This document shows, piece by piece, positions 260 through 36,594 of a stretch of DNA of 40,193 bases. Position numbers and translations under genes: made by a program. Location of the stretch: the UHGV virus genome UHGV-1364435. One strand, 5' to 3'. The notes under the pieces are model-generated. The model saw only the letters and a program-made list of their open reading frames with translations, did not search any database and was not told the DNA's origin. Source of the DNA: a virus. How positions within the stretch are numbered: position 1 is the first letter of the stretch; each line of letters starts with the position of its first letter.

Positions 260-1228
260 TTACAGGTCTGCGTCGACGATCGCCAGCGTACCCAGGGTAT
301 GCTTGTTCTCTGCAACGGCTTTATCCCAGTTGGACGCGGTAGCCAGTTCGGCGTCGGTCGGAGACTTGCCGCCGTTGGCGACGTCCCAGGAATAACCTTT
401 CAGTTTCAGCCCGAAGGAGTAATCAGCCTGCCAGGTCGTTTCGATACGGGTTTTACCGTTCGACGTCTCCATGTTGGTGATGATGTCGCTGGTATTGTCT
501 ACGACGATACCCTGCGCCACGACCGACAGCACTTTAGACTTATTCGGCGTGCCCGCTTCATAAAGTGCCGGGGAGTCGGTGACCACGTAACGCTTGCCTA
601 GGATATCTACAACCAGCACGTTGCTGGAAACAAACAGCTGGTTAGCGTTGGTGATCGCCTGGCCGATCAGCTTGTGATATACCGCGCCGGTCATGACGTC
701 AGTCACCAGCAGCTGGGATTGATCGCCGAATTTGGCATGGCTGTTATTCAGTGCACCCAGGCTGATACCCGCAGTCGCAGAGACATCGTTAACCAGAGCG
801 GCCTGGCCGGATACCGCGGCAACCGCTGCCGACAGTGCAGTGTTAAGCTGGTCCGCCAGCAGGGCGTCGGCGAAACCTTCGGAGATCGCCATAACCGCTT
901 CGGTCGGATTGCGCTGCAGCCAGGTAAGCTGGGACGGCTCGAACACGATCGGGCCAAAACCGCCGGCCACTTTAACACCAACGTTTTCACCCTGGGTTAA
1001 GTTGGTGCCGGTCTGCGCAGCGATAGCAGCATAGCGGTCGACGCGGCGCTGCGCGGACGCGATCTGGTTGTAGAAAGATTCCTTAGTGAAATCACCTTCC
1101 CACGCCTGGGAGGACAGCACGATCGCGCCGCCGGAGTTCGCATTAAACTGTTCGGTTTTCTGGCCCAGCAGTTCAATAGTAGCGCCGTAAATCTGGCGGT
1201 CGTAAACCTTCATGTTCGAGAGAGACAT
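260..1228 (-). CDS. major capsid protein
   Basis: 322-aa ORF directly downstream of the scaffold gene on the same strand, with an HK97-like capsid flavour (gly/ala-rich, no cysteines). Synteny is terminase-portal-head morphogenesis-scaffold-capsid. A strong terminator follows. Confidence 0.8.
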   Translation of the reverse strand: MSLSNMKVYDRQIYGATIELLGQKTEQFNANSGGAIVLSSQAWEGDFTKESFYNQIASAQRRVDRYAAIAAQTGTNLTQGENVGVKVAGGFGPIVFEPSQLTWLQRNPTEAVMAISEGFADALLADQLNTALSAAVAAVSGQAALVNDVSATAGISLGALNNSHAKFGDQSQLLVTDVMTGAVYHKLIGQAITNANQLFVSSNVLVVDILGKRYVVTDSPALYEAGTPNKSKVLSVVAQGIVVDNTSDIITNMETSNGKTRIETTWQADYSFGLKLKGYSWDVANGGKSPTDAELATASNWDKAVAENKHTLGTLAIVDADL

Positions 1229-1231
1229 ATT

Positions 1232-1924
1232 TTAACCCTTATTTTCTGCGTCAAGACGCTTACGGAGATCGGCCCGAGTTTTTTCGATGCCTGTCAAGTG
1301 CTCGCCACCGGCCCCGCCAGTAGGATTTTTGTTCCCGGCAGCCCCGCCGCCGTTCGCTGTGTCAGCCTGCATAAGATGAGAGATGACCTTATGCTTTTTG
1401 CAGTAGTCGATAAATTTATCGACATCTGTCGTAATAACTGCGCCGTCGGCGCCGACAAACTTGGTTACCAGGTCATCGCCGTCGAATTCGACTTTGATGA
1501 AAGGTGCGATCAAGTCCGCGGCGTCAGCATCGATGAATTTGCCTTTAGCAATCACGGCGCCCATAACAGCTTTGCGCTCGCTGCCGAGGATACGCTCGGC
1601 CAGCTTGGTGATCTTGCCGTCTTTCTCGGCGATCACCGGGTCATACTGACCACGAATCGATTTTTCGAACTCTTCCATTTGCCCGGACTGCTTCGCCGCT
1701 TCCTGCTGAGCGCGAACGCGTTCGGCTTCGGCGTCCTTTGCACGTTGTGCGGCTTTCTTCTTCTCGTCGAGAAGTGCGGTATTCTGGTTTTTCAGGCCAT
1801 TAACCAGCTCGTCGACTTCTTCCTGGGTGTAGGTCTTTGGCGCGTCGCCACCGCCACCGCCCTGGGTTCCGTCGTCATGTTCTTCTTGATACGCGAAAAG
1901 GAAAGACTGTAAAAAACGATTCAT
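1232..1924 (-). CDS. capsid scaffolding protein
   Basis: ATG at 1924 (MNRFLQSF...). The 230-aa product is highly charged, lys/glu/ala-rich and predicted coiled-coil (EEVDELVNGLKNQNTALLDEKKKAAQRAKDAEAERVRAQQEAAK), typical of scaffold proteins. It sits immediately upstream of the capsid gene. The track ORF extends further upstream only through a TTG alternative start. Confidence 0.7.
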   Translation of the reverse strand: MNRFLQSFLFAYQEEHDDGTQGGGGGDAPKTYTQEEVDELVNGLKNQNTALLDEKKKAAQRAKDAEAERVRAQQEAAKQSGQMEEFEKSIRGQYDPVIAEKDGKITKLAERILGSERKAVMGAVIAKGKFIDADAADLIAPFIKVEFDGDDLVTKFVGADGAVITTDVDKFIDYCKKHKVISHLMQADTANGGGAAGNKNPTGGAGGEHLTGIEKTRADLRKRLDAENKG

Positions 1925-1949
1925 AGTACGTAGACCCCTGGTCTTTATG

Positions 1950-1968
1950 AATCCGGGCCACCCGGATT
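1950..1968 (-). other. perfect 8-bp hairpin in 5' leader of scaffold/capsid operon
   Basis: AATCCGGG cca CCCGGATT. A second small palindrome GACCcctGGTC lies just before the scaffold ATG. Confidence 0.4.
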
Positions 1969-1979
1969 TACATACGCTA

Positions 1980-2008
1980 AATATACAGGGCAGCGCAAGT
2001 ATTAACAA
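1980..2008 (-). promoter_or_regulatory. candidate sigma70-type promoter for scaffold/capsid operon
   Basis: Minus-strand reading TTGTTA-N17-TATATT (-35 at 2008-2003, -10 at 1985-1980). The -35 is weak, so the call is tentative. Confidence 0.3.
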
Positions 2009-2026
2009 TATATCTGCAAATGTTGG

Positions 2027-2055
2027 TTGCAATATGTGTGGAGTAATATTATAGT
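2027..2055 (+). promoter_or_regulatory. strong sigma70-like promoter P1 (TTGCAA-N17-TATAGT) with upstream GTTGGTTGC motif
   Basis: -35 TTGCAA at 2027-2032, 17-nt spacer, -10 TATAGT at 2050-2055. It is immediately preceded by AAATGTTGGTTGCAAT. It is nearly identical to the cassette at 25911-25950. Confidence 0.55.
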
Positions 2056-2086
2056 TAGGAAACCAACAACGTGAGGTTACATCGAT

Positions 2087-2257
2087 ATGCAAAAATTATG
2101 GCAAAACACAGCGCAAAGAATCAACGCAAGCATAATGATGGAAAAAATAGTTACGGAGATGATTAAAAACGCTGAAAGTCAGGGACTAAAGGTTGAGATT
2201 TTCCATGATGAATTGCTAATTACCGAGGTAGATGATGAAACCAATGGCAAAGCGTAA
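2087..2257 (+). CDS. small hypothetical protein (56 aa), first gene of opposite-strand moron
   Basis: ATG at 2087 with GTGAGGT 9 nt upstream: MQKLWQNTAQRINASIMMEKIVTEMIKNAESQGLKVEIFHDELLITEVDDETNGKA. It lies downstream of P1 and is below the 60-aa track cutoff. Confidence 0.35.
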   Translation: MQKLWQNTAQRINASIMMEKIVTEMIKNAESQGLKVEIFHDELLITEVDDETNGKA

Positions 2258-2375
2258 TCCGACGAAGTACCAGCAACGGCGCCGGGTTTTCCTGGTCTAT
2301 CTTCCGGCAGCGTGGGTGGCTATAGCCTTCGTCTTCTGGGGTCTGGCCTGGCTGATAAAAAACGCCCCGTTATAG
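2232..2375 (+). CDS. small single-pass membrane protein (47 aa)
   Basis: ATGATG at 2232 with GAGG upstream. MMKPMAKRNPTKYQQRRRVFLVYLPAAWVAIAFVFWGLAWLIKNAPL has a basic N-terminus followed by one hydrophobic helix. It overlaps the preceding small ORF by 26 nt. Confidence 0.35.
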   Translation: MMKPMAKRNPTKYQQRRRVFLVYLPAAWVAIAFVFWGLAWLIKNAPL

Positions 2376-2382
2376 GGGCGTT
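2353..2382 (-). terminator. intrinsic terminator after Rz1 (minus strand); weak on plus strand
   Basis: AACGCCCC gttata GGGGCGTT (2361-2382). On the minus strand it is followed by TTTTTTAT. On the plus strand there is no U-tract (GTTACATT). The Rz1 stop (2370-2372) and the plus-strand small ORF stop (2373-2375) both lie in the loop. Confidence 0.6.
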
Positions 2383-2618
2383 GTTACATTCCAGATCCAG
2401 TCCTGCAGCTGGTACACCTGCAGCCTTAACTTTCTTCCGCAATCCATGTTCTGCACGTCAGCATTCAGATCCGCGTCACTGTCCTTTTCCGCCGGCTGAA
2501 ACTGGCACGGCTTCGTCATCATAGCCGGGGATGGCGTTGGCGTTGTCGATGGCGCGTTGTTTAATCCGCACCCGCTCATCGTCAAAAGTACAGCGCACAC
2601 GATCAGGATTTTGCACAT
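2370..2618 (-). CDS. Rz1: o-spanin (Rz1-like outer-membrane lipoprotein)
   Basis: MCKILIVCAVLLTMSGC is a signal peptide with a lipobox cysteine. The product is pro/thr-rich. The gene starts inside the Rz gene in another frame and extends past its stop. Confidence 0.6.
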   Translation of the reverse strand: MCKILIVCAVLLTMSGCGLNNAPSTTPTPSPAMMTKPCQFQPAEKDSDADLNADVQNMDCGRKLRLQVYQLQDWIWNVTTPL

Positions 2619-2862
2619 ATTTAACCACCTCTCGGGTTATCATTACGGTTTTCGCGGCGCCGGCCTGTTCGGCTTCGGCGGCCTTCGTGTCGTTTACCTG
2701 CTGCGCGGTTACCCGTTTCGCCAGTGTCGCCCGGGCCTTTTCTTCCTGCTGTGCTACCAGCTTCGCGCGACCTTCATTCCAGCCGGCATTGTATTGATAA
2801 TGGCCGAAACTCCACAGCAACGCCACGCATGATACAGCAACCAACGCATATAATTTCCACAT
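2476..2862 (-). CDS. Rz: i-spanin (Rz-like)
   Basis: ATG at 2862 (MWKLYALVAVSCVALLW...) with AAGGTGG 5 nt upstream. It has an N-terminal TM helix followed by a charged coiled-coil region (AQQEEKARATLAKRVTAQQ...). The Rz1 gene is embedded in it. Confidence 0.65.
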   Translation of the reverse strand: MWKLYALVAVSCVALLWSFGHYQYNAGWNEGRAKLVAQQEEKARATLAKRVTAQQVNDTKAAEAEQAGAAKTVMITREVVKYVQNPDRVRCTFDDERVRIKQRAIDNANAIPGYDDEAVPVSAGGKGQ

Positions 2863-3065
2863 ATCGCCACCTTTACAATTGCTGCCGTTGATTTCTCGCA
2901 AAATAAATGATACGATCAGCTTCGCTTTTGTGCGACGCCTCGCAAAGGCAGGCGCGCAACAAGCAATTGAAGTGATCGATTCAGCCTACCACACCATAAA
3001 TCCTTGATTTTACTCACTTAATTTCGCCACTCGCAAACTAAAACGGCAGCAACCAACGAAATCAG

Positions 3066-3152
3066 CCTAAGTCCTTGATATCTATACTCGCAATTTGACT
3101 CGCAAGATTTTGCGAGTCTTGCGAGTCGTCGCTACACGTAATAAATTACGAG
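3066..3152. repeat. about 90-bp repeat element A (CTAAGTCCTTGA ... ACTCGCAA ... GACTCGCAAgattTTGCGAGTC TTGCGAGTC ... ACACGTAATAAATTACGAGTT)
   Basis: About 75% identical to 12546-12640. It contains a perfect 9-bp/4-nt-spacer dyad at 3097-3118 plus further direct copies of ACTCGCAA. It abuts the 3' end of the head morphogenesis gene. Confidence 0.6.
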
Positions 3153-4195
3153 TTCCCGGACAGGAATTTTGCAACGCGTTTATCGTTCTCCGCCATCTCG
3201 CGCAGGGTCAACGGCCTGCCGAAACCGTCGACCGACGCAGCCCGGAATTCCTCGGCCGTCATACCGCTGTTACGGAAAATGTTGCCCCGAACCGGGCCGA
3301 GCGCTTCATCCTGGAACCATGCCGGCTGCATCTGCAGGAATTCGTAGTATGACGTATCAGCGTCTACCTGCGTGCCTCCGTCGGCCCCTCGCGCCGCCCG
3401 CTTCCCGCCGACGTCAAGGAAATCGAACTCGCTGCTGATCACCGGCGCCGTGGTCGTCCTGCAGTTCGGATGTAACGGCGGCAGCGGCCCCTTTCCGATA
3501 TCGTAAACCCTACCATGCGGCAGGTTACGGCAAATCGACGAGGTGCGCTTGTCCAGGGTCACCACCAGCTCGTAACCTTCCACGATATCGTCGTTTTTCT
3601 GGTATACGAGGTTTTTCGCTTCGGTCGATACATGGTTGATCGCTGTTCTAACCACCGTTGCCGCATTACGGTTTGACACGTCCGCAAGGCCGCCCGGGCC
3701 GACTACCTGGCGCACTATGTCGCGCGTCGTCATGCCCTGCACGAAACCAGACTTAACGCCAGTCACCAGGCGGTTAATCTCGGTATCCTGCCAGCTGGTC
3801 AGCATGTCCTGGAAGTCTACCGGCTTACCTTCCAGCTGCAGCGGATTGAACTTAATGGCGGACCAGACTTGCTCAGGCGACGGGGCGGTGAAACTGGCGT
3901 TGACGTTTCCGGACAGCGTGTCGGTCGTCCAGTCGGTTTCGTATTCGGCCAGCTTCTGCAGGTCCTGCTGCAAGCGCTCCTCCCAGCCGCTGGAGATGGC
4001 GTAAAGGATATCCTCCATGTCCTTTAACATAGCCTGGAGGCGCCCGCGGGTGCGGCTCTCGTCCCCGAAAGCCAGCACCCGCGTTTTCACCTCGTCGCGC
4101 ATCTGCTGGATGAACGGCCCCAGCTCGTTCACCTCATGCGAGGCGTTACGCTGGAGCCAGATCTGGTGACTGATAAAGGCCGTTAAGATACTCAT
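3146..4195 (-). CDS. head morphogenesis protein (SPP1 gp7 / Mu gpF-like minor head protein)
   Basis: 349 aa, positioned directly after the portal gene, with ATGA stop/start overlap. The sequence flavour matches minor-head/F-like proteins. Confidence 0.7.
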   Translation of the reverse strand: MSILTAFISHQIWLQRNASHEVNELGPFIQQMRDEVKTRVLAFGDESRTRGRLQAMLKDMEDILYAISSGWEERLQQDLQKLAEYETDWTTDTLSGNVNASFTAPSPEQVWSAIKFNPLQLEGKPVDFQDMLTSWQDTEINRLVTGVKSGFVQGMTTRDIVRQVVGPGGLADVSNRNAATVVRTAINHVSTEAKNLVYQKNDDIVEGYELVVTLDKRTSSICRNLPHGRVYDIGKGPLPPLHPNCRTTTAPVISSEFDFLDVGGKRAARGADGGTQVDADTSYYEFLQMQPAWFQDEALGPVRGNIFRNSGMTAEEFRAASVDGFGRPLTLREMAENDKRVAKFLSGNS

Positions 4196-5679
4196 ACCGC
4201 GGCCTGCTGGGTATTAGCTGCCGATGGAATATCGCTGGTAACCATCGTCGCCGTTCCGCGCGACGCGATCGGCTGGTCCGCGATAGCGTCCTGGATCTGT
4301 TCGTTAGTCCAGTTGGTAACCCCAGCCTCGCGCAGTGCTTCGTAGTACGCCGTAGCAGGCAGATAACCGGCGTTGATATCGGCGATCCATGCGGCGCGGT
4401 CCTGCGCGGTCATCGACTTAAGGAAGAATTCCATATTCAGCTTAAATTCAACATCCGTAGCGTCGACGTTAAGCATACCGGCAACCCACTTAAGCGCATC
4501 GGTGTACGCCTGGCTCACGTTACGGGCAATCGTAGCCATAACGGAGGTATCCGCCCCGCGCTGGATGCGCGCCGCTTCGGCGGTGACCTGCACGGTCGGC
4601 GTGATCAGCTGCGCGCCAATCTGCACGGCCTGCTGCTCTTTATCCAGCATGTTCTGTTTAGCCAGGTTATTTTCTGCAGCCTGCACCAGAAAAGCGTTGC
4701 CGCCGCTGCCGATATTATGACCCGTGCGCGACCCCATCTTAACGCCGTTCGGGTTAGCTTCTTTGAATTGCTCCAGGCTCATGTTTTCGCCCGGGCTCAT
4801 AAACAGCGTAGGCTGGCCGACAACGAAACTCGACTCCTCATTGTCAGCGCTATTACGGAAATGACCGATATTCAATTCAGCAAGCGGCAGGATCGGCGGG
4901 TCGTCCGGCGTATGGTCGTTATTGGTGGCGCCGATAAACGTAAACGGAATGATCCCCACCGGCACGCCGGCCAGGTCCGGGAAAATCTCCTGCACGCCGC
5001 CACGCAATTCGCCCTTCTGGTTAAACTGGTAAAGGCGCTGCCGGTATTTACCGTCTAAAAGGTCCAGCACGCGATATTGCTCGCCGTAATAGGTCGCGAA
5101 TTCGTCTTGCCCGTCGTTGTACTCGTAGGACTCGCGCAGCACGATAAGCGATACGCGGTTAACCGACCCGACGCGGGTAAGACGCCAGTTAACGATATTC
5201 TCGGCGGTGTAGAATACGATGACCGGGTTTAATAATCCCTCATTCTGCTCCGCCATGGTAGCGGCAGCGGTAACCGGGGCGTCCACCAGCAGGCCGCCGC
5301 GGCCAATCGAATCAATCTCGGTCAGAGTGTCCTGCGCGTGCTGCCATAACCCGACGCCGGAGCCGTCGCAGTTGGTTAACAGGTAGTCGAGTTGCGCCGG
5401 GATCGTCTGCTCCGGGTCTTTGCGCATCACGCTCCCGACCATGCCGGAAAGCGTGCGCTTAGTGAAGTTGTAGCAGATCGCCCCGTCTTCATATTCACGC
5501 TGCCGCTGTTTACCGTATTCGGGGTCGCGCTCGTTCTTGCCTACGTTGCGCAGGTATTCCTTTAGCTCGCCCGCGATAGCGTTGCGGACCTTCTGCCACT
5601 TAGGCGCATATTTCTCATATTCGCAATGCAGGGTCTTAACGTTCGCCCCCGCACCGGCGTTAATGTTGGCGGTTGTCAT
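4192..5679 (-). CDS. portal protein
   Basis: 495 aa, positioned between terminase large subunit and head morphogenesis protein. Size and synteny are typical of portal proteins. Confidence 0.75.
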   Translation of the reverse strand: MTTANINAGAGANVKTLHCEYEKYAPKWQKVRNAIAGELKEYLRNVGKNERDPEYGKQRQREYEDGAICYNFTKRTLSGMVGSVMRKDPEQTIPAQLDYLLTNCDGSGVGLWQHAQDTLTEIDSIGRGGLLVDAPVTAAATMAEQNEGLLNPVIVFYTAENIVNWRLTRVGSVNRVSLIVLRESYEYNDGQDEFATYYGEQYRVLDLLDGKYRQRLYQFNQKGELRGGVQEIFPDLAGVPVGIIPFTFIGATNNDHTPDDPPILPLAELNIGHFRNSADNEESSFVVGQPTLFMSPGENMSLEQFKEANPNGVKMGSRTGHNIGSGGNAFLVQAAENNLAKQNMLDKEQQAVQIGAQLITPTVQVTAEAARIQRGADTSVMATIARNVSQAYTDALKWVAGMLNVDATDVEFKLNMEFFLKSMTAQDRAAWIADINAGYLPATAYYEALREAGVTNWTNEQIQDAIADQPIASRGTATMVTSDIPSAANTQQAAV

Positions 5680-8900: not shown

Positions 8901-8930
8901 AGTATAATCATATTGCAACCAACATTGCAA
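8901..8930 (-). promoter_or_regulatory. candidate promoter TTGCAA-N18-TATACT with GTTGGTTGCAAT in spacer
   Basis: Minus strand -35 at 8930-8925 and -10 at 8906-8901. The leader AGGAGCAAA is also present after the 12055-12084 promoter. Confidence 0.45.
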
Positions 8931-10122: not shown

Positions 10123-10470
10123 TTAGCAACGCTCAAAGTTATACCGGAGTATCTCTCCTGGGCGTATTTCCGGCTTATTTGGGATCGAATCTTCCGGATA
10201 CTCTTTCGCCCAATGGCGCCAAAGCCGGTAGGCTATCGCGGCGCGGGCAACTGATTTGAACGACCCAAGATTTACGTTTCGACCACGCGACCACACCATA
10301 GCCCGCCACTCGCAATAACCCCCGCGGTTCAGTCGGCTAACACCTTTAATTCCAGATGGTTCCGATTGTACTCGCCGCTTGACTGGTTTAACCGGCGCTT
10401 TACAGGTGATCTTGCGCTTCGCCGCCGGGAGTTCGCCTGCGCGTTTCAGAATATCGGTTGCAAGGCTCAT
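10123..10470 (-). CDS. AP2-like DNA-binding domain protein (standalone)
   Basis: Start at 10470 (ATGA overlap with upstream gene), 115 aa. The segment GVSRLNRGGYCEWRAMVWSRGRNVNLGSFKSVARAAIAYRLW resembles the AP2 domain seen at the C-termini of the two HNH endonucleases in this window. Confidence 0.45.
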   Translation of the reverse strand: MSLATDILKRAGELPAAKRKITCKAPVKPVKRRVQSEPSGIKGVSRLNRGGYCEWRAMVWSRGRNVNLGSFKSVARAAIAYRLWRHWAKEYPEDSIPNKPEIRPGEILRYNFERC

Positions 10471-12054: not shown

Positions 12055-12084
12055 AGTATATGTCTAAACCAATGTTGGTTGCAA
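12055..12084 (-). promoter_or_regulatory. candidate promoter TTGCAA-N18-TATACT overlapping GTTGGTTGCAAT motif
   Basis: Minus strand -35 at 12084-12079 and -10 at 12060-12055. It shares the leader AGGAGCAAA with the promoter at 8901-8930. Confidence 0.4.
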
Positions 12085-12391
12085 TACTGAATAACAAAAA
12101 TAAGGGCCGCGGTAACTGGTATGGTAGTCTACTAGCCTACTTGCGTGCGTGAAGTGCGGAATTCGCTAGGACTAATCTTAATAGCGACCACCACCCCAAG
12201 ACCCAGCAAATGCGGTATGCAAGACGCAAATTGACGAGATAGCCCACCACCTATTCCCGACTCTAAAATCTACGTAACTCGCTGCCAGAATCACCGCAAC
12301 CAACCAGAAAAATTATCCTGTCTCCTCGCACCAGATACTTGCTGCCGTGATATTTACATTCTGGCTATTGCAACCTCGCAATTAAAATGAT

Positions 12392-12458
12392 ATGCTCACT
12401 GCGTTCGCTTGGCAAAGCCCGCCAAGGCGACTTGCCTGCGACGCAAGAACGTGAGCAT
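12392..12458. repeat. 67-nt three-stem palindromic element
   Basis: The outer stem ATGCTCAC/GTGAGCAT encloses two inner hairpins: CGCTTGGC aaagccc GCCAAGgCG, and CTTGC ctgcgac GCAAG. On the minus strand it is followed by a U-rich tract (ATCATTTTAATT). Confidence 0.5.
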
Positions 12459-12545
12459 TTCAGGTTTTGCGAATAAAATCCCTCCATAAATCAATCACTT
12501 ACCTACCGACTCGCAATCCATTTTTGCGAAAACCAACAAAAACAC

Positions 12546-12640
12546 CCTAAGTCATTGAAAACGTTACTCGCAATTTCATTCGCAAAATTTTGCGAGTCTT
12601 GCGAGTCGATTCGCATTACTCGCAACACGTATTATTTTAC
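12546..12640. repeat. about 90-bp repeat element B (CTAAGTCATTGA ... ACTCGCAA ... TCGCAAAATTTTGCGA ... ACACGTATTATTTTACGAGTT)
   Basis: Second copy of the element at 3066-3152. It contains a perfect 16-bp palindrome at 12580-12595. It abuts the 3' end of the primase-helicase gene. Confidence 0.6.
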
Positions 12641-14937
12641 GAGTTTAAGTCCTCATCACTTGCAACCAATTCCGGAGGGTCAAAGTCGTTTACGCCAGTC
12701 GGCAGCCTGTATTGTTGGTTGTAAACTTCACCCGTATCCGGGTTACGGCCGTGCACTAAAACCCGTCGTCGCACCAGTTCTTCCAGCACTTTTTTATAGT
12801 TGCCGCTGGTGAACTTGTTTCCGCCTGCCGTGCCGATGGCATAGGGTGAATAGCCTTCCGGTTTATCCTCCAGCAGTTCGAGCTGGGCGACCATCACCTC
12901 TTCGGCCTTGTTCTTGGGCCCTGCGCCGCCGGAGGCTTTCACGGCCTCGCGGGCTACTTCGGAAGCTGGTGATTCGAATGGCGCCAGGGCGACCGGTACC
13001 AGGTACAGCGTTTCGTCACGCGGCGACATCTCCAGCGGTTTCGGCGTCCAGCCTGACAGCTGATCGGAAAAGTCCGGGCCCGCGGCGGTGGACAGATACG
13101 CGTCAACGCGGTCGGCGTGCGCCTGGGGGACGTCGATTTTACATTTCAGAAGGACGAAGCCGCGCGGCGACTGTTTGATGCCGTTACGCGCTTTTTCGTG
13201 ATAGAGGTTGATCTGGTGAGGCTTGGCCTCGTCCGGCTGCTCGATGAAGAATGCGTAATCCACAGCCCCATGCAGCGCGCCAGAGCCGCGGGCGGTACGC
13301 TGGCCCGAGGAGAACTTCGCCGGGTGGTGGATAACGCCAGCGCTGCCGCCGGTGGTCTCGGATATCTGTTTCAGCGCGCGGACGATTTCCCCCATATCGG
13401 TCGGGGAGTTTTCATCGAACGGCTTTTTAGCGGTACTGCGCATGGCGACTGTCTGGTTGAGCGAGTCGAAGGCCACCAGGCCGACGGGTGAATCGCCAGC
13501 TGCATCACGGATAATCTTGCATACCTCTTTCACGCCGCGCGCGTCGGTGATGTCGATCCCCTTATCCTGCAGGTCGATGATATGCAGCCAGTTAAGGTCG
13601 TCCTGGTACATCTTCTGCAGCGCCTGCTTACGATGCAGGCTGGTTTCGCCGCCTTCCGCATCGAAATAAAAGTTGTGGGCGCGCACGACACGCCGTCCGC
13701 CGAACGGGATCCCGGAGGATACGGCGGCCATCTCGCCGAGGACGAAGAACGATTTACCGATGTTTGACTCGCCGGCGGCGTACCACGTGGATTTGAAATT
13801 AATCAGGCCCTCAATGATGGGGTCACGCTTGGTGAACAGGGTAACAGGGTCGTCGTCCAAATCCTCGTCGGTACACTGGCCGGCGGCGGGACCATCTAGC
13901 GCGGCCATTACCTCAGCCTCGTAGACGTGGGTTATCTCCTCTTCCGGTAAATCCGGCAGCAGTTCGGCGATCTGCTTTTTGCTGATATTGTGCGCTTCCG
14001 GCAAATACTGGTCCGGCACGCCGCAAAGGCGCAGCAGCATGTGCTGGTGTGTATTGTGCTTCCTGCAGTGGTCGTGCTGGCACGCGAAGCGCACCTCGGG
14101 GTGAAGGGCGTCGGGCATCATGATCGCCGTGCTGCCGTCTGTCCCGTCGTTATCGCTGTGCTGGAAGTGGTTGGGGCACTGTATGGCGAAGCCACGGCCA
14201 GAGGATAACGGTTCGAGTCCCATTTCCCAGCACCACGCGGCGATCGCCTGGCTATTCTCGCTGGCGTTTTCCAGCGCTTCGTCGGTCCAGTTAGTCGACC
14301 CTGATTCGTCCGGCACGTCGAACCGGTGGCGCAGGATGCGGCGGACGCTGGCCGGCGCTGCGCGGTGGTCGATGGTCTCGGCCTCAATGTGCGGGGCGAA
14401 CATAAGGCGGGCGCGCTGGAATGCTGTTTCGTCCATCCCTTTCGCGCCGGTGAGCCCGAGCATATCGATGAATTTGTGCTGGCATGGCCAGATCTCATCA
14501 GCCAGCATCGGCCGGTCTGTCGGGATGAGGAAACGCCAGGAGCGCGATTTAACGCCGCCTTTCAGGTCGTGCCGGTCGCCGCAGGTGGAGTAAGCAAAGA
14601 AAGTGTATCCGCCATCCTCCAGCGCACGACGCACACGGCGGATCTCTTTGCTGGATACTTTGTCGATGTCGATAAACAGCAGGGACCGGGAAATGACGTT
14701 GTTGTTATTGCGCTTGTTGCGCTCAAACTCCGCAGCAACATACGGCAACCGGCCTTTCTTTTCTTCGTAACGATCTTCGGTCTCGCTGCCGTCGATGGAA
14801 ACCCCCAGCACGGGGTCGGCGCCGATCTCCAGCAGGTCGTCGATAAACTCATCCCAGGAGGATTCGAAAGCCTTCGGGCGATTGTCGGTTTTATGCCGGC
14901 CGAGAGAATAGGATATTTTTGATTTTAACCGTGGCAT
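12637..14937 (-). CDS. DNA primase / replicative helicase fusion (primase N-terminal region with Cys/His zinc motif, plus DnaB/RepA-like P-loop helicase)
   Basis: 766 aa. Zinc-binding-like CPNHFQHSDNDGTDG...CQHDHC. Walker A AAGESNIGKS followed by RecA/DnaB-like motifs. GGAG RBS. Confidence 0.8.
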   Translation of the reverse strand: MPRLKSKISYSLGRHKTDNRPKAFESSWDEFIDDLLEIGADPVLGVSIDGSETEDRYEEKKGRLPYVAAEFERNKRNNNNVISRSLLFIDIDKVSSKEIRRVRRALEDGGYTFFAYSTCGDRHDLKGGVKSRSWRFLIPTDRPMLADEIWPCQHKFIDMLGLTGAKGMDETAFQRARLMFAPHIEAETIDHRAAPASVRRILRHRFDVPDESGSTNWTDEALENASENSQAIAAWCWEMGLEPLSSGRGFAIQCPNHFQHSDNDGTDGSTAIMMPDALHPEVRFACQHDHCRKHNTHQHMLLRLCGVPDQYLPEAHNISKKQIAELLPDLPEEEITHVYEAEVMAALDGPAAGQCTDEDLDDDPVTLFTKRDPIIEGLINFKSTWYAAGESNIGKSFFVLGEMAAVSSGIPFGGRRVVRAHNFYFDAEGGETSLHRKQALQKMYQDDLNWLHIIDLQDKGIDITDARGVKEVCKIIRDAAGDSPVGLVAFDSLNQTVAMRSTAKKPFDENSPTDMGEIVRALKQISETTGGSAGVIHHPAKFSSGQRTARGSGALHGAVDYAFFIEQPDEAKPHQINLYHEKARNGIKQSPRGFVLLKCKIDVPQAHADRVDAYLSTAAGPDFSDQLSGWTPKPLEMSPRDETLYLVPVALAPFESPASEVAREAVKASGGAGPKNKAEEVMVAQLELLEDKPEGYSPYAIGTAGGNKFTSGNYKKVLEELVRRRVLVHGRNPDTGEVYNQQYRLPTGVNDFDPPELVASDEDLNS

Positions 14938-22577: not shown

Positions 22578-22604
22578 TATGTTGGTTGCTAAGGAGGATA
22601 TACC

Positions 22605-25428: not shown

Positions 25429-25912
25429 TAAATCAAACACGGCGCCGGAAGATAAAGACTGCTGGCGCACGCCTCCGGAGATATTCGAGCCGCTCAACGA
25501 GCGGTTTAATTTCCGCTATGACATGGCGGCAGCTGATCACAACGCCCTTTGCGCACGGTACTACACCGAACAGAATAGCGCCCTGGGTATCGAGTGGCCT
25601 GCGGCATGGAAATGGTGTAACCCGCCTTACTCGAAGCCGCTGCCGTGGTTCCAGCACGCCGCGCAGTACAGGAAAACGGTGTTGCTCCTGCACCTGGCCG
25701 TCGCTACGCAGTGGATGGATATAGCGCGCCAGGAGGCTAACACCATCATTCAGCTGACCGAGCGCATCCAGTTTATTCACGCCAGGACCGGCGAGCGCGC
25801 GGCGACGAAGAATAACCGCGACTCGCAGATCATCATCTTTGGCCGTCGGCCTAACCCAGACGGCGCGCGCATCGTCCAGTGCTCGATCGCGGATATCGCA
25901 AAATATCTATAA
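25421..25912 (+). CDS. DNA N6-adenine methyltransferase (phage Dam-like, pfam05869-type)
   Basis: ATG at 25421 (MADKSNTAPEDKDCWRTPPEIFEPLNERFNF..DMAAADHNA...). Catalytic motif NPPY (WCNPPYS). Confidence 0.75.
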   Translation: MADKSNTAPEDKDCWRTPPEIFEPLNERFNFRYDMAAADHNALCARYYTEQNSALGIEWPAAWKWCNPPYSKPLPWFQHAAQYRKTVLLLHLAVATQWMDIARQEANTIIQLTERIQFIHARTGERAATKNNRDSQIIIFGRRPNPDGARIVQCSIADIAKYL

Positions 25913-25919
25913 ATGTTGG

Positions 25920-25948
25920 TTGCAATATTAGCGGAGTCATATTATAGT
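25920..25948 (+). promoter_or_regulatory. strong sigma70-like promoter P2 (TTGCAA-N17-TATAGT), near-identical to P1
   Basis: AAATGTTGGTTGCAATATTAGCGGAGTCATATTATAGTTAG matches AAATGTTGGTTGCAATATGTGTGGAGTAATATTATAGTTAG at 2018-2058. Confidence 0.55.
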
Positions 25949-25993
25949 TAGTTCATAGGCGGCGCGGTGCCGCAAATGAATGAGGATTCAATT

Positions 25994-26197
25994 ATGGCGC
26001 ACATGATGAGAAAGGCCGATTTTCTGGTACTGGCAAGAAAGCTGGATAGCCCCCGGGTCAAGTCACATCGTCACGGCGTTCTCTTGATGGATGGTAACAA
26101 GGTGCTGGAAGAAATTTACGTTGCATCATCCTTTAATGAAGCGGGTATTATTTCGGCTATGAATCAAGCCACTAAATTCAAAGGATGGCTGGCATGA
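25994..26197 (+). CDS. hypothetical protein (67 aa)
   Basis: GAGGA 8 nt upstream of the ATG at 25994 (MAHMMRKADFLVLARKLDSPRV...). Confidence 0.4.
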   Translation: MAHMMRKADFLVLARKLDSPRVKSHRHGVLLMDGNKVLEEIYVASSFNEAGIISAMNQATKFKGWLA

Positions 26198-26370
26198 AAG
26201 TTAATGTAGTATTTGAGCACCGCGTCAACGGGTATCAGTGGCGTAAATCGTCGGATGGTCGGATATGGGTACGGGAGCCTTCTTGCATGAAATGGCGATA
26301 TTCAAGCACCACCGAGCGCAATATAGATACAGCTTTAACCGATGGCCTACTATTTGAGGTGAAAAAATGA
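26194..26370 (+). CDS. hypothetical protein (58 aa)
   Basis: ATGA overlaps with both neighbours (MKVNVVFEHRVNGYQWRKSSDGRIW...). Confidence 0.4.
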   Translation: MKVNVVFEHRVNGYQWRKSSDGRIWVREPSCMKWRYSSTTERNIDTALTDGLLFEVKK

Positions 26371-26687
26371 AACGTATTACCGCAATCGCAATCACTCTGG
26401 CCGCCGTTCTGGGCTGCTCGTATGCAGGATCCGCCGCTGCCGTCACTCCGGTAGAAATGTGCCAGGAGCTGGCCGAAATGGGTGGTGTTATTGTCGACGC
26501 CAGGAACCGCGGCGACTCGCTGGAAAACGTAACCAGCATTATCAACGGCAGCGATATGACCCCGAGCCTTAAAGCCGGCATGACGCGCATCGCCGTTACG
26601 ATTTATGGCAATCCGTCGTTGAAACGCGCCGACGTCGTGGCCTATGGTTTTAAAGGGTGTATCGATGGGCTGTCAGAGGATATGTGA
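26367..26687 (+). CDS. small lipoprotein (106 aa), candidate receptor-blocking superinfection-exclusion protein
   Basis: Signal peptide MKRITAIAITLAAVLGC with a lipobox-like VLGC. It is encoded convergent to and immediately beside the tailspike gene, and is followed by a strong terminator. Confidence 0.55.
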   Translation: MKRITAIAITLAAVLGCSYAGSAAAVTPVEMCQELAEMGGVIVDARNRGDSLENVTSIINGSDMTPSLKAGMTRIAVTIYGNPSLKRADVVAYGFKGCIDGLSEDM

Positions 26688-26688
26688 G

Positions 26689-26716
26689 AAAAGGGCCGCA
26701 AGGCCCTTTTTTTTTG
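26689..26716. terminator. bidirectional intrinsic terminator
   Basis: AAGGGCC gcaa GGCCCTT (26690-26708) with A-run upstream and T9 downstream. It serves the plus-strand lipoprotein cassette and the minus-strand tail operon end. Confidence 0.75.
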
Positions 26717-26908: not shown

Positions 26909-29191
26909 TCATATCTCTTTTACTGACCAAAAAACAGGAATTTTTACTTTAATTGTTCCAACAAAACCGGTCAATCTCAACGCCAACTGCGCAGAATCAG
27001 CGTATTGTGCCTGCGGTACGCTTTGCGAAACGCCAACGTATGATGTTGGGGCAAGAGGGCTACCAGACCTTGTGAAAAGTTCCGTTACATTGATAACATC
27101 ACTCAGATAAACGGCAATGGTCCCCCTACTTGTCGTTATAGTAGATGTTCCTGAGTTAAATGTTAACACTGGTTCTTCAAATGTCCTTGCCAACATATAC
27201 ATATTCACATTACCAGAAGATATCCCACCTGCGCATATGGATAGCCCGCCGCACCATGTCGGCCTTTCTTTTGCTGGATAATATGGGGTGTGTACTAGCT
27301 CAAATACATCAGAGCTATTGACAGCAGTAATTTCTATTGTTCTTGATCCATCCGCGGTATTCGCGCCATATACAGCGGAAACCCCAGAGTTAGATGAACT
27401 AACTGTAATTTTTGTGTTGGCATCAGTTGTGTTTAGCACTGAGTTACCTTGGGTTCCAGAGAAATTAAACCGCCACCCCATCAGGCCATTATTATACCTC
27501 GGCAATATACGGTTTGATCTAAGCCCGGTACTGCGTGGGTTTTTATTGGTGATAACACACCTGTTATTATTTTCTGTACCATCGCCATACCCGCTAAGAG
27601 ATAGATATTCATAAGTTTCGTAGTATTGCGTAAATGTCCAATCACATTCCTCGAAAGAAACAGCACAACCACCACCAGGAGCGTGGATGAGTTGCCGTAT
27701 TGTGTTGGACGCCCCGTTCATATAAAGCTGAACATCTCGGAACTGAACTTTAACCGGTATTCCTGGCGCGGAAGGGCAATTCACCAGATAACCCGGAACC
27801 CCTTCGATATGTCCGCCCTGAACCAGGATCCTTGATACGGATGCCAGATTGCCAACGAGAAGAACATCAGCATCAGTATAATCCAGTGAACAGTTATTGA
27901 TGTAATACCACATTGGCGCCTGAAACCAGAAATGTGCAACCGAGTTATTACCGATCGTACAATTCTCGAAAATCATTTTCTCCCCAGCGTTTAAGGAAGA
28001 GCCGCCAGATACATAGACACCATATTGGTTTAGCATTGAAATAATGCCATTGAAGGTATTAATGAAATTGTTTCTTGCGGTTATTTGTATACCATATTTA
28101 AACTTCATTATGGTTAAGTCGCCGACCATTAAATCTCTGACAGCGAAATATGAAGTACTTGGGTCCCCAACATATAATCCCGTGCCAGTTGATACCGCAC
28201 CGCCTGGGCCAGTAAGAATGAACCTTCCGCCATTTGCGTTAAAGATCTTACAGCCCTGAACATCGGCCGGGTTAGACGGCATGCCGCCCGAAGAGATAGC
28301 CAGCGAAGCGTTATTGATGCTGAACGCACTGTCTGTCACGGATGGGTAATTCAAATAAACATAACCATCAGTAATCAGACACATAAATGACGGGATGAAT
28401 ACCGGAGTATCAATCGTGTAAACCTTTCTGGATGCAGGAATAAAGAAATTCGTGATTGCGCCTTTGATGGTGCCAGCCGCTTTTATCTTGTTAACCTCGC
28501 CAGTAATGATGGTATTCAAAACTGTACCAAGGTTAGAGTTATCAGAGAGAAGCCCAGCAAGACGTACATCAAGCCCTTTGGAAACATCAGCCTTCCAACG
28601 AGCGCCTCCAGCCGTAACAAATACAGAATAACCATCATCAGCCGTAGTCAAATCATCGGCATCGTACCAAAGTTGGCAATTTATCTCATGACCACCAGAC
28701 ACAGCACGCCGCAGGGTAATAGATTGCCCCGCGTATGAGGGCTCAACTGTGCGCAGTGCGGAGATGGTTGAGCATTTGCCAATAAGTTTTAAACCATCTA
28801 ATGCCGCGAGATTTTGCCTCAATAACTGGTCCGTGCGGGGTTTCCAGTTAGAGTCTAGTAATGGATTTGTACCAGGCGCTACAACATGCGGCAGCGTACC
28901 CGCCCACGAATACCAGTTGTTATCCGCCGGGTTATATACCACGGTATCGCGTGCGGTAACGGTGCCGCCAGTGGTGAAATCGAACGCCGCCGGGTCAAAG
29001 CCCATGTCACGCAAGATTGCCGGAAGAGTCTTTTGCACTTGCCCGGTGACCGGGTTAGTGGCAAAGTCAATCTCCGCGCCGGAAGATACCCCACCCGCAT
29101 GCCCTGTAATAACTTCGGCCTCAAAGGTCTGGTGCTTCTTGGCCGTTTTCAGATCTTCCAGCGATAAGACGTCGCCGCATCCGCTTGACAT
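26909..29191 (-). CDS. tailspike / side tail fibre with beta-helix (pectate-lyase-like) domain, probable polysaccharide depolymerase
   Basis: 760 aa. The N-terminal roughly 130 aa look like a conserved adaptor domain. The central/C-terminal region has repetitive G/N/S/T-rich beta-helix-like composition. The C-terminal coding DNA has visibly lower GC, about 42%. Confidence 0.7.
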   Translation of the reverse strand: MSSGCGDVLSLEDLKTAKKHQTFEAEVITGHAGGVSSGAEIDFATNPVTGQVQKTLPAILRDMGFDPAAFDFTTGGTVTARDTVVYNPADNNWYSWAGTLPHVVAPGTNPLLDSNWKPRTDQLLRQNLAALDGLKLIGKCSTISALRTVEPSYAGQSITLRRAVSGGHEINCQLWYDADDLTTADDGYSVFVTAGGARWKADVSKGLDVRLAGLLSDNSNLGTVLNTIITGEVNKIKAAGTIKGAITNFFIPASRKVYTIDTPVFIPSFMCLITDGYVYLNYPSVTDSAFSINNASLAISSGGMPSNPADVQGCKIFNANGGRFILTGPGGAVSTGTGLYVGDPSTSYFAVRDLMVGDLTIMKFKYGIQITARNNFINTFNGIISMLNQYGVYVSGGSSLNAGEKMIFENCTIGNNSVAHFWFQAPMWYYINNCSLDYTDADVLLVGNLASVSRILVQGGHIEGVPGYLVNCPSAPGIPVKVQFRDVQLYMNGASNTIRQLIHAPGGGCAVSFEECDWTFTQYYETYEYLSLSGYGDGTENNNRCVITNKNPRSTGLRSNRILPRYNNGLMGWRFNFSGTQGNSVLNTTDANTKITVSSSNSGVSAVYGANTADGSRTIEITAVNSSDVFELVHTPYYPAKERPTWCGGLSICAGGISSGNVNMYMLARTFEEPVLTFNSGTSTITTSRGTIAVYLSDVINVTELFTRSGSPLAPTSYVGVSQSVPQAQYADSAQLALRLTGFVGTIKVKIPVFWSVKEI

Positions 29192-35469: not shown

Positions 35470-35833
35470 CGTGTCTGCCCTCGAAAATGGCGTCAATACG
35501 CATAATCAAATCCGCTTCCATAATGCTGATCCGCTGCCCGGTTACCGCCTTGTAATCGACGATATCGGACCACTTAAGCATTTCTCGCGGGTATATCATC
35601 ATAGTATCATTAGTTTCGCGCTGTATGAATTTTAGTTCCCTGTATTTCTCGAACACACCAGCAAAAATTAAGGGGCACTCTGGCCCCTTTAATTCTTCGC
35701 GCTGCGCGCCGGATATGACCCCCATCGAGATCAGCGCGGCCTCATGCCCCGCCGATATCTGGTCGAACTCCTGCCGGCGCTGCCGTGTTACGAATTGCCA
35801 GGTAGCGAAATCACACAGCGCTTTTACTTTGCG
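35462..35833 (-). CDS. gpT-like -1 frame extension of tail assembly chaperone (candidate programmed frameshift product G-T)
   Basis: The -1 frame opens 4 codons before the chaperone stop and runs to 35462, overlapping the tape-measure start. The first in-frame ATG is at 35725. Ordinary initiation at that ATG lacks an RBS. Confidence 0.45.
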   Translation of the reverse strand, partial: RKVKALCDFATWQFVTRQRRQEFDQISAGHEAALISMGVISGAQREELKGPECPLIFAGVFEKYRELKFIQRETNDTMMIYPREMLKWSDIVDYKAVTGQRISIMEADLIMRIDAIFEGRHDG

Positions 35834-36240
35834 TTAAGTTCTTCCCGGATCTTGGTGTGGAAGGTAGCGACCTGCAGCGCGAGACCGCGATACTGGCGCA
35901 GCAATTCCGCGAAACCTTCACGGCTAAACTCTTCATCGAACGACCAGCCGGTAACCAGTTCAACCGCGAGATCACGATTAAGGCTCTCCACCTGGATATT
36001 TCGCTTCTCGTTCCATTCGGTGTAGTTGTCTTTCGCTTTACAGGCTGCTTCCAGCTCTTCCAGCGAGGCGTCGACGGCCCGCACAGCTGCCGTGTATGCG
36101 CGCCCGGCTTCGATCGAGACGTCGCAATCTGGCCCGCGCACCTGCAGCCATTCGCCGGAGTCTTCACCATTCGGCAGCATGATTGGCATACGCGATCCGG
36201 CTTCGTGTTTGTCGGCAAAGTAGAAATCTTTCAGCTTCAT
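35824..36240 (-). CDS. tail assembly chaperone (gpG-like)
   Basis: 138 aa acidic protein between the major tail and tape measure genes. It ends ...GCA AAG TAA. Confidence 0.55.
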   Translation of the reverse strand: MKLKDFYFADKHEAGSRMPIMLPNGEDSGEWLQVRGPDCDVSIEAGRAYTAAVRAVDASLEELEAACKAKDNYTEWNEKRNIQVESLNRDLAVELVTGWSFDEEFSREGFAELLRQYRGLALQVATFHTKIREELNAK

Positions 36241-36268
36241 TTTTAACCCGCTATGGTTGATTTGTTGG

Positions 36269-36297
36269 TTGCGATATGTTTAGATACATGTAGAACT
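36269..36297 (+). promoter_or_regulatory. variant of the GTTGGTTGC promoter module (TTGCGA -35)
   Basis: TTTGTTGGTTGCGATATG... lies upstream of the small plus-strand membrane-protein gene. The -10 is weak (TAGAAC). Confidence 0.3.
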
Positions 36298-36315
36298 TTC
36301 AAAGAGGAATATACC

Positions 36316-36564
36316 ATGACGCAATTCATTATAGCAATTCTGGCGATGGGCCTAAACCTGGCCGTGCTGTTCTTCGTTGTGCGCTACGCCACGCGGTCGA
36401 GCGAACAGGTCGAATTGTTGCGCCAGATTCTGGCGACGGCGAAACCGGAAGTAAAAAGCGAAATCGTTAAACTGACAGAAGAGCGGATCGCGAGACGACG
36501 GGAGGCGTTTGAGGATGACATGAGAAAGGGGTCTAGAACGACCGATCATAGATTCAGAATATAA
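36316..36564 (+). CDS. small membrane protein (82 aa) encoded antisense to the tail operon
   Basis: RBS AAAGAGGAATATACC ATG. The N-terminal TM helix is FIIAILAMGLNLAVLFFVV, followed by a charged helical tail. It has its own promoter motif and terminator. Confidence 0.55.
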   Translation: MTQFIIAILAMGLNLAVLFFVVRYATRSSEQVELLRQILATAKPEVKSEIVKLTEERIARRREAFEDDMRKGSRTTDHRFRI

Positions 36565-36594
36565 TAAAGGCCCCGAAAGGGGCCTTTATTTTAT
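36565..36594. terminator. bidirectional intrinsic terminator
   Basis: AAGGCCCC gaaa GGGGCCTT with A-run before and TTTATTTTA after. It is shared by the plus-strand small gene and the minus-strand major tail gene. Confidence 0.75.

Follow-up and report, generated by a model that had tools for sequence, protein, structure and literature searches.

A putative accessory cassette opposite to the late genes in a virulent Klebsiella phage of the Guernseyvirinae

The UHGV virus genome UHGV-1364435, a stretch of 40,193 nucleotides (nt) which was analysed at full length and is called the window in the following, carries a small group of features between its head scaffolding gene and its spanin genes that read on the strand opposite to their surroundings. 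Sequence comparison identifies the window as the genome of a Klebsiella Guernseyvirinae siphophage. In a phage collection, three records matched the region 1900–2900, namely Klebsiella phage 37P2 (94.8%) and two records of VLCpiS11a (85.4%); both are Guernseyvirinae siphophages of about 39–40 kb and the nearest relatives of the window. A preliminary description of this DNA had proposed a plus-strand promoter of the form TTGCAA-N17-TATAGT, antisense to all neighbouring genes, that drives two small overlapping open reading frames (ORFs) of moron type and ends in the terminator hairpin of Rz1. All of these elements were found at the positions given, and the flanking scaffold, Rz1 and Rz genes all lie on the minus strand. 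The locus comprises the following features:

2006–2058, plus strand: promoter module of the cassette, a conserved 53-nt repeat with the core motif ATGTTGGTTGCAA at 2020–2032
2027–2055, plus strand: promoter-like site TTGCAA-N17-TATAGT, with the −35 element at 2027–2032 and the −10 element at 2050–2055
2087–2257, plus strand: ORF1, encoding an acidic, soluble protein of 56 amino acids, with a Shine-Dalgarno sequence GAGG at 2073–2076
2235–2375, plus strand: ORF2, encoding a predicted membrane protein of 46 amino acids (47 if the start is at 2232), with a Shine-Dalgarno sequence GAGG at 2225–2228
2361–2382, both strands: hairpin with an 8-bp GC-rich stem at the convergent 3′ ends of ORF2 and Rz1

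We consider it probable, at roughly 0.6, that these features form a self-contained accessory cassette of this virulent phage, placed on the strand opposite to its late genes. With low confidence, we further propose that its products are accessory proteins directed at the envelope, superinfection exclusion being their most likely role. The two ORFs are unannotated in one of the three deposited relatives, and a search of the literature returned nothing on the cassette or on transcription units near the spanins in Guernseyvirinae; a transcriptome paper on vB_Eco_K1B4 gives no usable gene-level mapping.

Both ORFs vary among relatives in the manner of protein-coding genes. For ORF1, the ratio of nonsynonymous to synonymous polymorphism (pN/pS) is 0.26 overall and 0.06 over codons 31–48, which lie upstream of the overlap with ORF2, and the variable sites number 12, 13 and 26 at the three codon positions. 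Ten distinct nucleotide sequences of ORF2 yield a pN/pS of 0.17 in its own frame, with 8, 7 and 22 variable sites by codon position; four of the five other frames give values of 1.2–2.7, and the remaining antisense frame, which shares the wobble positions, gives 0.28. These patterns show that both ORFs are real genes under purifying selection. The two overlapping ORFs of the preliminary description, one soluble and one with a single transmembrane segment, are retained. The length of 47 amino acids given for the second is more likely 46, because the relatives have only the second ATG (2235), and GAGG stands 6 nt upstream of it. The overlap between the two ORFs is 23 nt. An ORF of 31 amino acids at 2071–2166 is an alternative frame inside ORF1 and was rejected.

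According to an alternative account there is no cassette at all: the conserved DNA would belong solely to the scaffold and capsid genes, as their promoter and leader, and the ORFs would be chance frames. Positions 1909–1973, which hold the scaffold leader and start, are in fact conserved subfamily-wide (about 88% identity across some 450 Guernseyvirinae records from Salmonella, Escherichia and Klebsiella), a plausible minus-strand promoter lies at 2008–1980, and the plus-strand site is not above chance by its hexamers alone. However, frame-specific purifying selection on both ORFs contradicts this account, which appears barely tenable. Both ORFs have a Shine-Dalgarno sequence, the genes that take the place of ORF1 in relatives belong to recurrent PHROG families, and the promoter module recurs at 25899–25951, where it has no divergent gene beside it. 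The preliminary description had named a conserved untranslated leader with disrupted ORFs as one observation that would speak against it; both ORFs are intact in relatives instead.

The plus-strand hexamers match the consensus at 9 of 12 positions, which makes the earlier term "near-consensus" an overstatement, and four comparable sites occur in 1200–3400 against 2.1 ± 1.5 in shuffled sequence. More can be gained from an alignment of 12 related genomes. There, ATGTTGGTTGCAATATG, which comprises the −35 hexamer together with the preceding 7 nt, is invariant; the next nine or so bases of the spacer vary, with the spacer length fixed at 17; and the −10 element is kept as TATAGT, TATATT, TACAGT or TACATT, in short TA(T/C)A(G/T)T. 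An invariant −35 element, a spacer of varying sequence and fixed length, and a retained −10 element make up a pattern typical of a promoter. A second copy of the 53-nt block, 87% identical, lies at 25899–25951 and is followed by a plus-strand gene set; among the direct repeats of the 40-kb genome, this one ranks second in length. The core ATGTTGGTTGCAA of the block is present in four exact copies and in four with one or two mismatches, compared to 0.8 ± 0.9 expected, and copies are found at syntenic positions in phage VLCpiS11a. Conservation pattern, paralogous copy and motif enrichment together argue that the predicted plus-strand promoter is more than a chance match. In Salmonella Cornellvirus relatives, TTGACA/TTGGCA-N17-TAATAT stands at the equivalent place, upstream of plus-strand genes of their own. 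A plus-strand ORF of 35 amino acids at 1947–2054 was rejected, as it overlies the promoter, lacks a Shine-Dalgarno sequence and is conserved only since the regulatory DNA is.

Further copies of ATGTTGGTTGCAA, exact or with one or two mismatches, stand in other registers relative to predicted promoters at 8913–8925 (minus strand) and, on the plus strand, at 10451–10463, 12072–12084, 12712–12724 and 22579–22591. The copy at 22579 directly precedes a Shine-Dalgarno sequence and start codon, and the VLCpiS11a copy syntenic with it precedes a Lar-like restriction-alleviation gene. The copies are syntenic in VLCpiS11a, which suggests a site for a phage regulator and not merely the context of a −35 element. 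The PHIRE motifs reported for Golestan differ from ATGTTGGTTGCAA.

Comparison of related phages for presence or absence of the cassette, as recommended by the preliminary description, lends support to an accessory unit. The slot, defined as the DNA from the scaffold start to the Rz1 stop, was extracted from the collected loci (L numbers), and in it at least six unrelated types of gene, or none, precede ORF2:

ORF1 family, 56 amino acids: window, L005/L006, L007 and L020
Arginine-rich protein, 50 amino acids: 37P2, VLCpiS11a and L010
Protein of 83 amino acids: L008
Protein of 88 amino acids: L009
Protein of 75 amino acids: L010 and L015
Protein of 65 amino acids: L021 and L022
No gene before ORF2: L016, L017 and L023, in which ORF2 occurs by itself behind its own Shine-Dalgarno sequence

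The joints of the exchanged cargo are sharp: one follows the −10 element closely on its downstream side, the other is at the start codon of ORF2. Three of the alternative cargo proteins, those of 83 and 75 amino acids and one of 49 amino acids from Cornellvirus, are members of recurrent PHROG families to which no function is assigned. Homologs of the 83-residue protein occur in phages related to T1, some 1.5 kb from the left end of T1, and those of the 75-residue protein in Escherichia, Klebsiella and Providencia phages of about 108–118 kb as well as in Pseudomonas phages. Beyond the slot-bearing Klebsiella clade, the picture changes further: in four Guernseyvirinae contigs (L011–L014) just 24–69 nt separate Rz1 from the scaffold gene, Kagunavirus Golestan has no gene in the slot, and Salmonella relatives fill it with other plus-strand genes of 49 to 169 amino acids and have no ORF2. 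As the slot is filled differently or is absent across relatives, it is an old opposite-strand hotspot in which ORF1 is recent cargo and ORF2 a clade-specific resident.

The arginine-rich 50-residue protein (…GLRRLRRCARRLKAAY…) is encoded at 796–948 of L001, at 4187–4339 of L002 and at 4103–4255 of the reverse complement of L010. It resembles arginine-rich RNA-binding peptides, and in 37P2 and VLCpiS11a its stop codon overlaps the ORF2 start as ATGA. Cornellvirus and Kagunavirus relatives have a second opposite-strand cassette on the far side of the spanins, where it separates Rz from the head morphogenesis gene (L003 4235–4744, L004 4042–5315, L019 3471–3913), with genes for a RusA-like resolvase or hypothetical proteins; the window has at this position only an array of CTCGCAA motifs.

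ORF1 encodes a protein with a net charge of −4 and has a guanine-plus-cytosine (GC) content of 36.6%, compared to 55.1% for the genome. Its homologs (95%, 80% and 73% identity) are confined to the same slot in four related contigs and are always followed by ORF2. An AlphaFold (AF2) model predicts a long helix (residues 2–31) packed on a beta hairpin (34–39, 42–47) with a mean predicted local distance difference test (pLDDT) score of 78.6, for which no fold match was returned from PDB or BFVD at E ≤ 0.001. Searches of Pfam, PHROGs, NCBIfam, PADLOC and PDB sequences gave no meaningful match for ORF1, and tblastn against 50,697 phage records gave none; weak SepX/GlpR and cyclase matches in the family searches with ORF1 and ORF2 fell far below the cut-offs. 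Foreign GC content, and unrelated genes or none at the same position in relatives, show that ORF1 is recent, horizontally acquired and swappable cargo.

These properties are also the basis for regarding ORF1, and perhaps ORF2, as a factor that neutralises host immunity or some process of the host, for instance cell division or abortive infection based in the membrane. The variable first position would then reflect an arms race with Klebsiella defences. Small, rapidly exchanged and compositionally foreign genes behind a conserved promoter would fit such a role, as would a small acidic protein with a confidently predicted compact fold and cargo types that are common to unrelated virulent phages, the T1-like ones included. 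In one related contig (L025, 444–710) a Tad2-like gene (anti-Thoeris, PF11195) lies just downstream of the major capsid gene, hence anti-defence genes do enter the late region of this phage group. Neither a known family nor a fold is matched, though, and the idea accounts for ORF1 better than for the conserved ORF2. As an explanation of the whole cassette we regard it as unlikely; it is compatible with an accessory cassette as preferred here.

ORF2 is the last gene in every slot-bearing Klebsiella-clade genome examined, and its GC content of 54.6% is genome-like. It is a clade-specific resident, not mobile cargo. The notion of accessory cargo holds for ORF1, which is swappable and of foreign composition in a slot that distant relatives lack, and does not extend to the resident ORF2. 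The ORF2 protein starts with a tail, MKPMAKRNPTKYQQRRR, that is invariant and carries seven basic residues and a charge of +7, continues with one hydrophobic helix at residues 18–41 (Kyte-Doolittle maximum 2.07 at 18–36) and ends in KNAPL. By the positive-inside rule the tail should be cytoplasmic, and we infer an N-in single-pass inner-membrane protein. An exhaustive HMMER search with an ORF2 profile against 1.84 billion representatives recovered this clade and one divergent homolog of 42 amino acids, P0013; two further hits were low-complexity repeats and were rejected. In a phage that is more distantly related, P0013 occupies the slot by itself. It keeps the basic tail of ORF2, with synonymous changes, and the KNAPL end, around a hydrophobic core that is unrelated. 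The tail is thus selected as a peptide, and the helix appears replaceable.

A replaceable transmembrane sequence would also suit a generic membrane-active helix, and ORF2 could be a toxin-like peptide in the style of type I toxins or single-gene lysis proteins, which depolarises or permeabilises the membrane, with ORF1 or an overlapping frame controlling its translation as mok does for hok. A length of 46 amino acids, a strongly basic tail and a single hydrophobic helix are consistent with this, and so are the 23-nt overlap with ORF1 and the ATGA overlap of the equivalent genes in 37P2. However, ORF2 occurs by itself in L016, L017 and L023, where it has its own Shine-Dalgarno sequence, it matches neither Hok nor any other toxin family in Pfam, and no antisense RNA partner was identified, the region 1800–3300 being without a match in Rfam. 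A toxin of this kind is therefore quite improbable.

At its distal end the cassette meets the spanin unit tail to tail at one hairpin. The genes and elements of the minus strand around it are:

260–1228, minus strand: major capsid protein
1232–1924, minus strand: head scaffolding protein (PHROG 206, E = 1.2e-35)
1925–1979, minus strand: 5′ leader of the scaffold gene, outside the cassette, with the 8-bp hairpin AAUCCGGG-UGG-CCCGGAUU and another, small one ahead of the Shine-Dalgarno sequence
1980–2008, minus strand: candidate divergent promoter TTGTTA-N17-TATATT, back to back with the plus-strand promoter and facing the scaffold and major capsid genes
2370–2618, minus strand: Rz1, lipoprotein o-spanin (PHROG Rz-like spanin family, E = 1.8e-19)
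2476–2862, minus strand: Rz (PHROG Rz-like spanin family, E = 2.2e-47)
3146–4195, minus strand: Mu F-like head protein
4192–5679, minus strand: portal

Rz1 is embedded in Rz and runs beyond it; this spanin unit converges on the cassette. The stop codons of ORF2 (2373–2375) and Rz1 (2370–2372) both lie inside the hairpin at 2361–2382, which has about −23 kcal/mol in a 56-nt context on either strand and is kept in relatives with a change in the loop only. It is followed by UUUUUU on the minus strand and by GUUACAUU on the plus strand. The plus-strand order AAAAAA-hairpin-GUUACAUU provides a U-tract for the minus-strand transcript only, hence the hairpin has the features of a canonical intrinsic terminator on that strand and not of a bidirectional one, which agrees with the preliminary description. 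Plus-strand read-through, antisense to Rz1 and Rz, is plausible. As Rz1 ends in a canonical minus-strand terminator, late transcription into the scaffold and capsid genes may start anew at the candidate promoter at 2008–1980; in L002 and L023 the hexamers of this candidate are invariant and its spacer varies. The scaffold leader downstream, for which Rfam gives no match, could be an element of RNA processing, stability or translational control. A minus-strand ORF of 286 amino acids (1232–2092) is an upstream extension of the scaffold gene, the true start of which is the ATG at 1924, and was rejected.

Upstream of Rz, the intergenic region 2863–3145 contains seven copies of CTCGCAA/TTGCGAG, including the palindrome GACTCGCAAGATTTTGCGAGTCTTGCGAGTC. 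A second cluster of six copies lies at 12375–12625, and the window has 15 copies in total compared to 7.6 expected. The 100-nt cores at 3029–3128 and 12509–12608 share 79% identity and form the longest repeat in the genome; the latter is upstream of a minus-strand block that runs toward the holins and the endolysin. These arrays may serve as a shared regulator-binding array for the lysis genes, and since the array upstream of the spanins is duplicated before the lysis-ward block, the spanins look like a separately controlled unit.

This arrangement invites an explanation in terms of lysis timing, in which antisense read-through from the cassette would damp Rz1 and Rz until the late promoters dominate, or ORF2 would bind a holin or the i-spanin in the inner membrane and tune lysis time, or both. 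The tail-to-tail convergence on the spanins, the U-tract on the minus strand only, the apparent separateness of the spanin unit with its duplicated array, and a predicted single-pass inner-membrane protein adjoining the lysis genes all point in this direction. On the other hand, in the complete VLCpiS11a genome two holins and the endolysin form a lysis cassette of their own, away from the spanins, relatives without the slot carry the same spanins, and the slot of Salmonella relatives holds unrelated soluble proteins and no ORF2. An antisense role would leave the purifying selection on the ORF2 peptide unexplained, and ORF2 matches no holin or antiholin family in PHROG or Pfam. We consider a role in lysis timing unlikely and reject ORF2 as the holin of this phage, in view of the two holins found beside the endolysin in VLCpiS11a.

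The preferred interpretation, an accessory cassette with envelope-directed products, is informed by two further units of the window:

Cassette 2, plus strand: copy of the promoter module at 25899–25951, followed by ORFs at 25994–26197, 26194–26370 and 26367–26687
Cassette 3, 36262–36594, plus strand: degenerate motif TTGTTGGTTGCGA at 36262–36274, followed by a gene at 36316–36564 for a protein of 82 amino acids with an N-terminal transmembrane helix

The last gene of cassette 2 encodes a lipoprotein of 106 amino acids (MKRITAIAITLAAVLGC...) with the lipobox VLGC. The unit ends in a GGGCC-GCAA-GGCCC hairpin with nine T (26693–26715) and is convergent with a minus-strand tail gene for 760 amino acids (26909–29191). 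In VLCpiS11a the lipoprotein is 96% conserved and both upstream ORFs are replaced. By its sequence, this layout of variable proximal genes and a conserved distal envelope gene matches that of the cassette at 2006–2382. The position of the lipoprotein recalls receptor-blocking lipoproteins of the Cor/Llp type.

Cassette 3 ends in a GGCCCC-GAAA-GGGGCC hairpin with flanking A and T runs and lies in the tail block, between a minus-strand ORF of 138 amino acids (35824–36240) and the next tail gene; the VLCpiS11a counterpart of the 138-residue ORF by size and gene order is annotated as a tail assembly chaperone. The protein at 36316–36564 scores E = 1.3e-5 and 25.7 bits with the Pfam YebO-like family, just below the cut-off of 27 bits, and shows 41% identity with HK97 Gp15 over 34 residues (pairwise E = 5e-10). 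Cassette 3 therefore looks like a gp15-type superinfection-exclusion moron, here predicted in a virulent phage.

Based on this dataset, we hypothesize that host RNA polymerase would transcribe the cassette independently of the late operons, probably early, and that its products would act on the host envelope or on host defences rather than in virion assembly. ORF1 would then most likely be a host-takeover or anti-defence factor, and ORF2 might block superinfection or DNA entry at the inner membrane. This role, the likeliest single one for ORF2, is a tentative proposal of low probability, made because the sister cassettes with the motif end in a lipoprotein beside a tail gene and in a gp15-like protein, so that all three motif-bearing cassettes close with an envelope protein. 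An extended version, in which the 53-nt ATGTTGGTTGCAA module is the portable driver of a regulon of three cassettes, each composed of a promoter, swappable cargo, a conserved envelope protein and a terminator, is more doubtful. In this version the module and the distal gene would together act as recombination anchors for the shuffling of cargo, and ORF2 would belong to a new family of tail-plus-helix inner-membrane proteins that blocks DNA entry or times lysis via the spanins.

Several points weigh against the interpretation of the cassette as an early, envelope-directed exclusion unit. ORF2 has no similarity to gp15 or to any entry of Pfam, PHROG, NCBIfam, PADLOC or PDB, and the envelope theme across the three cassettes is an argument from guilt by association. 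The replaced transmembrane sequence of P0013 argues against a sequence-specific contact between transmembrane segments of ORF2 and a membrane partner. Exclusion proteins are best documented in temperate phages. The promoter, moreover, scores 9 of 12 only, and its activity and timing are what we infer from the DNA. At 8913–8925 and 12072–12084 the motif ATGTTGGTTGCAA has a different register or orientation relative to predicted promoters, hence it may be an operator for a phage regulator and not part of a simple constitutive promoter.

Phages of this kind are candidates for Klebsiella phage therapy. In this context it matters that the ORFs behave as real genes with a conserved predicted promoter of their own, and that three putative envelope-directed cassettes, one of them gp15-like, point to functions which may affect cocktail design (through mutual exclusion), lysis timing and host range. 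The layout of promoter, variable cargo and conserved membrane-protein gene furthermore offers a defined place to seek new anti-defence or exclusion genes. Only two aspects are mildly new, namely a promoter module that can be reused and, across the three cassettes, the combination of variable cargo with a conserved envelope gene; apart from these, this appears to be a fairly ordinary phage accessory cassette, and current understanding is not overturned.

Among known systems, morons offer the first comparison, for which we follow a description (PMC3594210) that cites Juhala et al. 2000. The cassette is extra DNA at a syntenic position, reduced to 24–69 nt in L011–L014 and absent in Golestan. It has a predicted promoter of its own, a sigma-70-like site with promoter-type conservation and a paralogous copy, and it ends in a strong hairpin with a U-tract on the minus strand only. 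The base composition deviates in ORF1 (36.6% GC) and not in ORF2 (54.6%). Expression from a repressed prophage with a benefit for the lysogen, the strict sense of the term, does not apply here, as the complete genome of the close relative VLCpiS11a is annotated with neither an integrase nor a repressor; the paper on Golestan, another Guernseyvirinae phage, likewise reports no lysogeny genes (PMC7203180). We therefore describe the cassette as moron-like, by virtue of extra DNA, a predicted promoter of its own and partly foreign composition, with a doubtful plus-strand terminator. The designation as a moron in the preliminary description is justified by the extra DNA and the foreign composition of ORF1 and fails in the strict prophage sense.

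HK97 gene 15, located between the gene of the tail assembly chaperone and that of the tape measure protein, was the first moron to be described, and its product gp15, an inner-membrane protein encoded by this moron, prevents superinfecting phages from injecting their genomes (PMC3594210). The cassette resembles it in being a short extra unit within a block of virion genes, in being missing from some relatives, and in coding for a small inner-membrane protein with a single pass, as predicted for ORF2, and the window has a gp15 homolog (36316–36564) behind a degenerate copy of the same promoter motif. However, ORF2 yields no BLASTP alignment with HK97 Gp15 and no Pfam hit (PF13974), which places it outside the YebO/gp15 family. 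It has a predicted basic N-terminal tail before its helix, whereas the helix of gp15 is N-terminal, and the cassette differs from gene 15 in its opposite strand, its two genes, one of them swappable, and the lack of prophage expression.

Precedents of exclusion from virulent phages are T4 Imm and Sp and T5 Llp. Encoded by early genes that have host-type promoters apart from the late programme, they are small proteins that target the envelope, as is proposed for ORF2; the analogy is confined to mechanism. They have no homology to ORF2; Llp is a lipoprotein, and Imm has two transmembrane segments.

With hok/mok/sok the cassette shares a protein of less than 50 amino acids with one hydrophobic helix, ORF2, and an upstream frame that overlaps its start. 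In contrast to hok, ORF2 has no Hok match, occurs alone in some relatives and is located in a phage late region.

A further parallel may be seen in the accessory hotspots of virulent phages, where conserved flanks surround interchangeable small genes that are shared across unrelated phages. The hotspot described here differs from these in that it is set within the block of head and lysis genes, reads on the opposite strand and is bounded by a reused 53-nt promoter module on one side and a conserved membrane-protein gene on the other.

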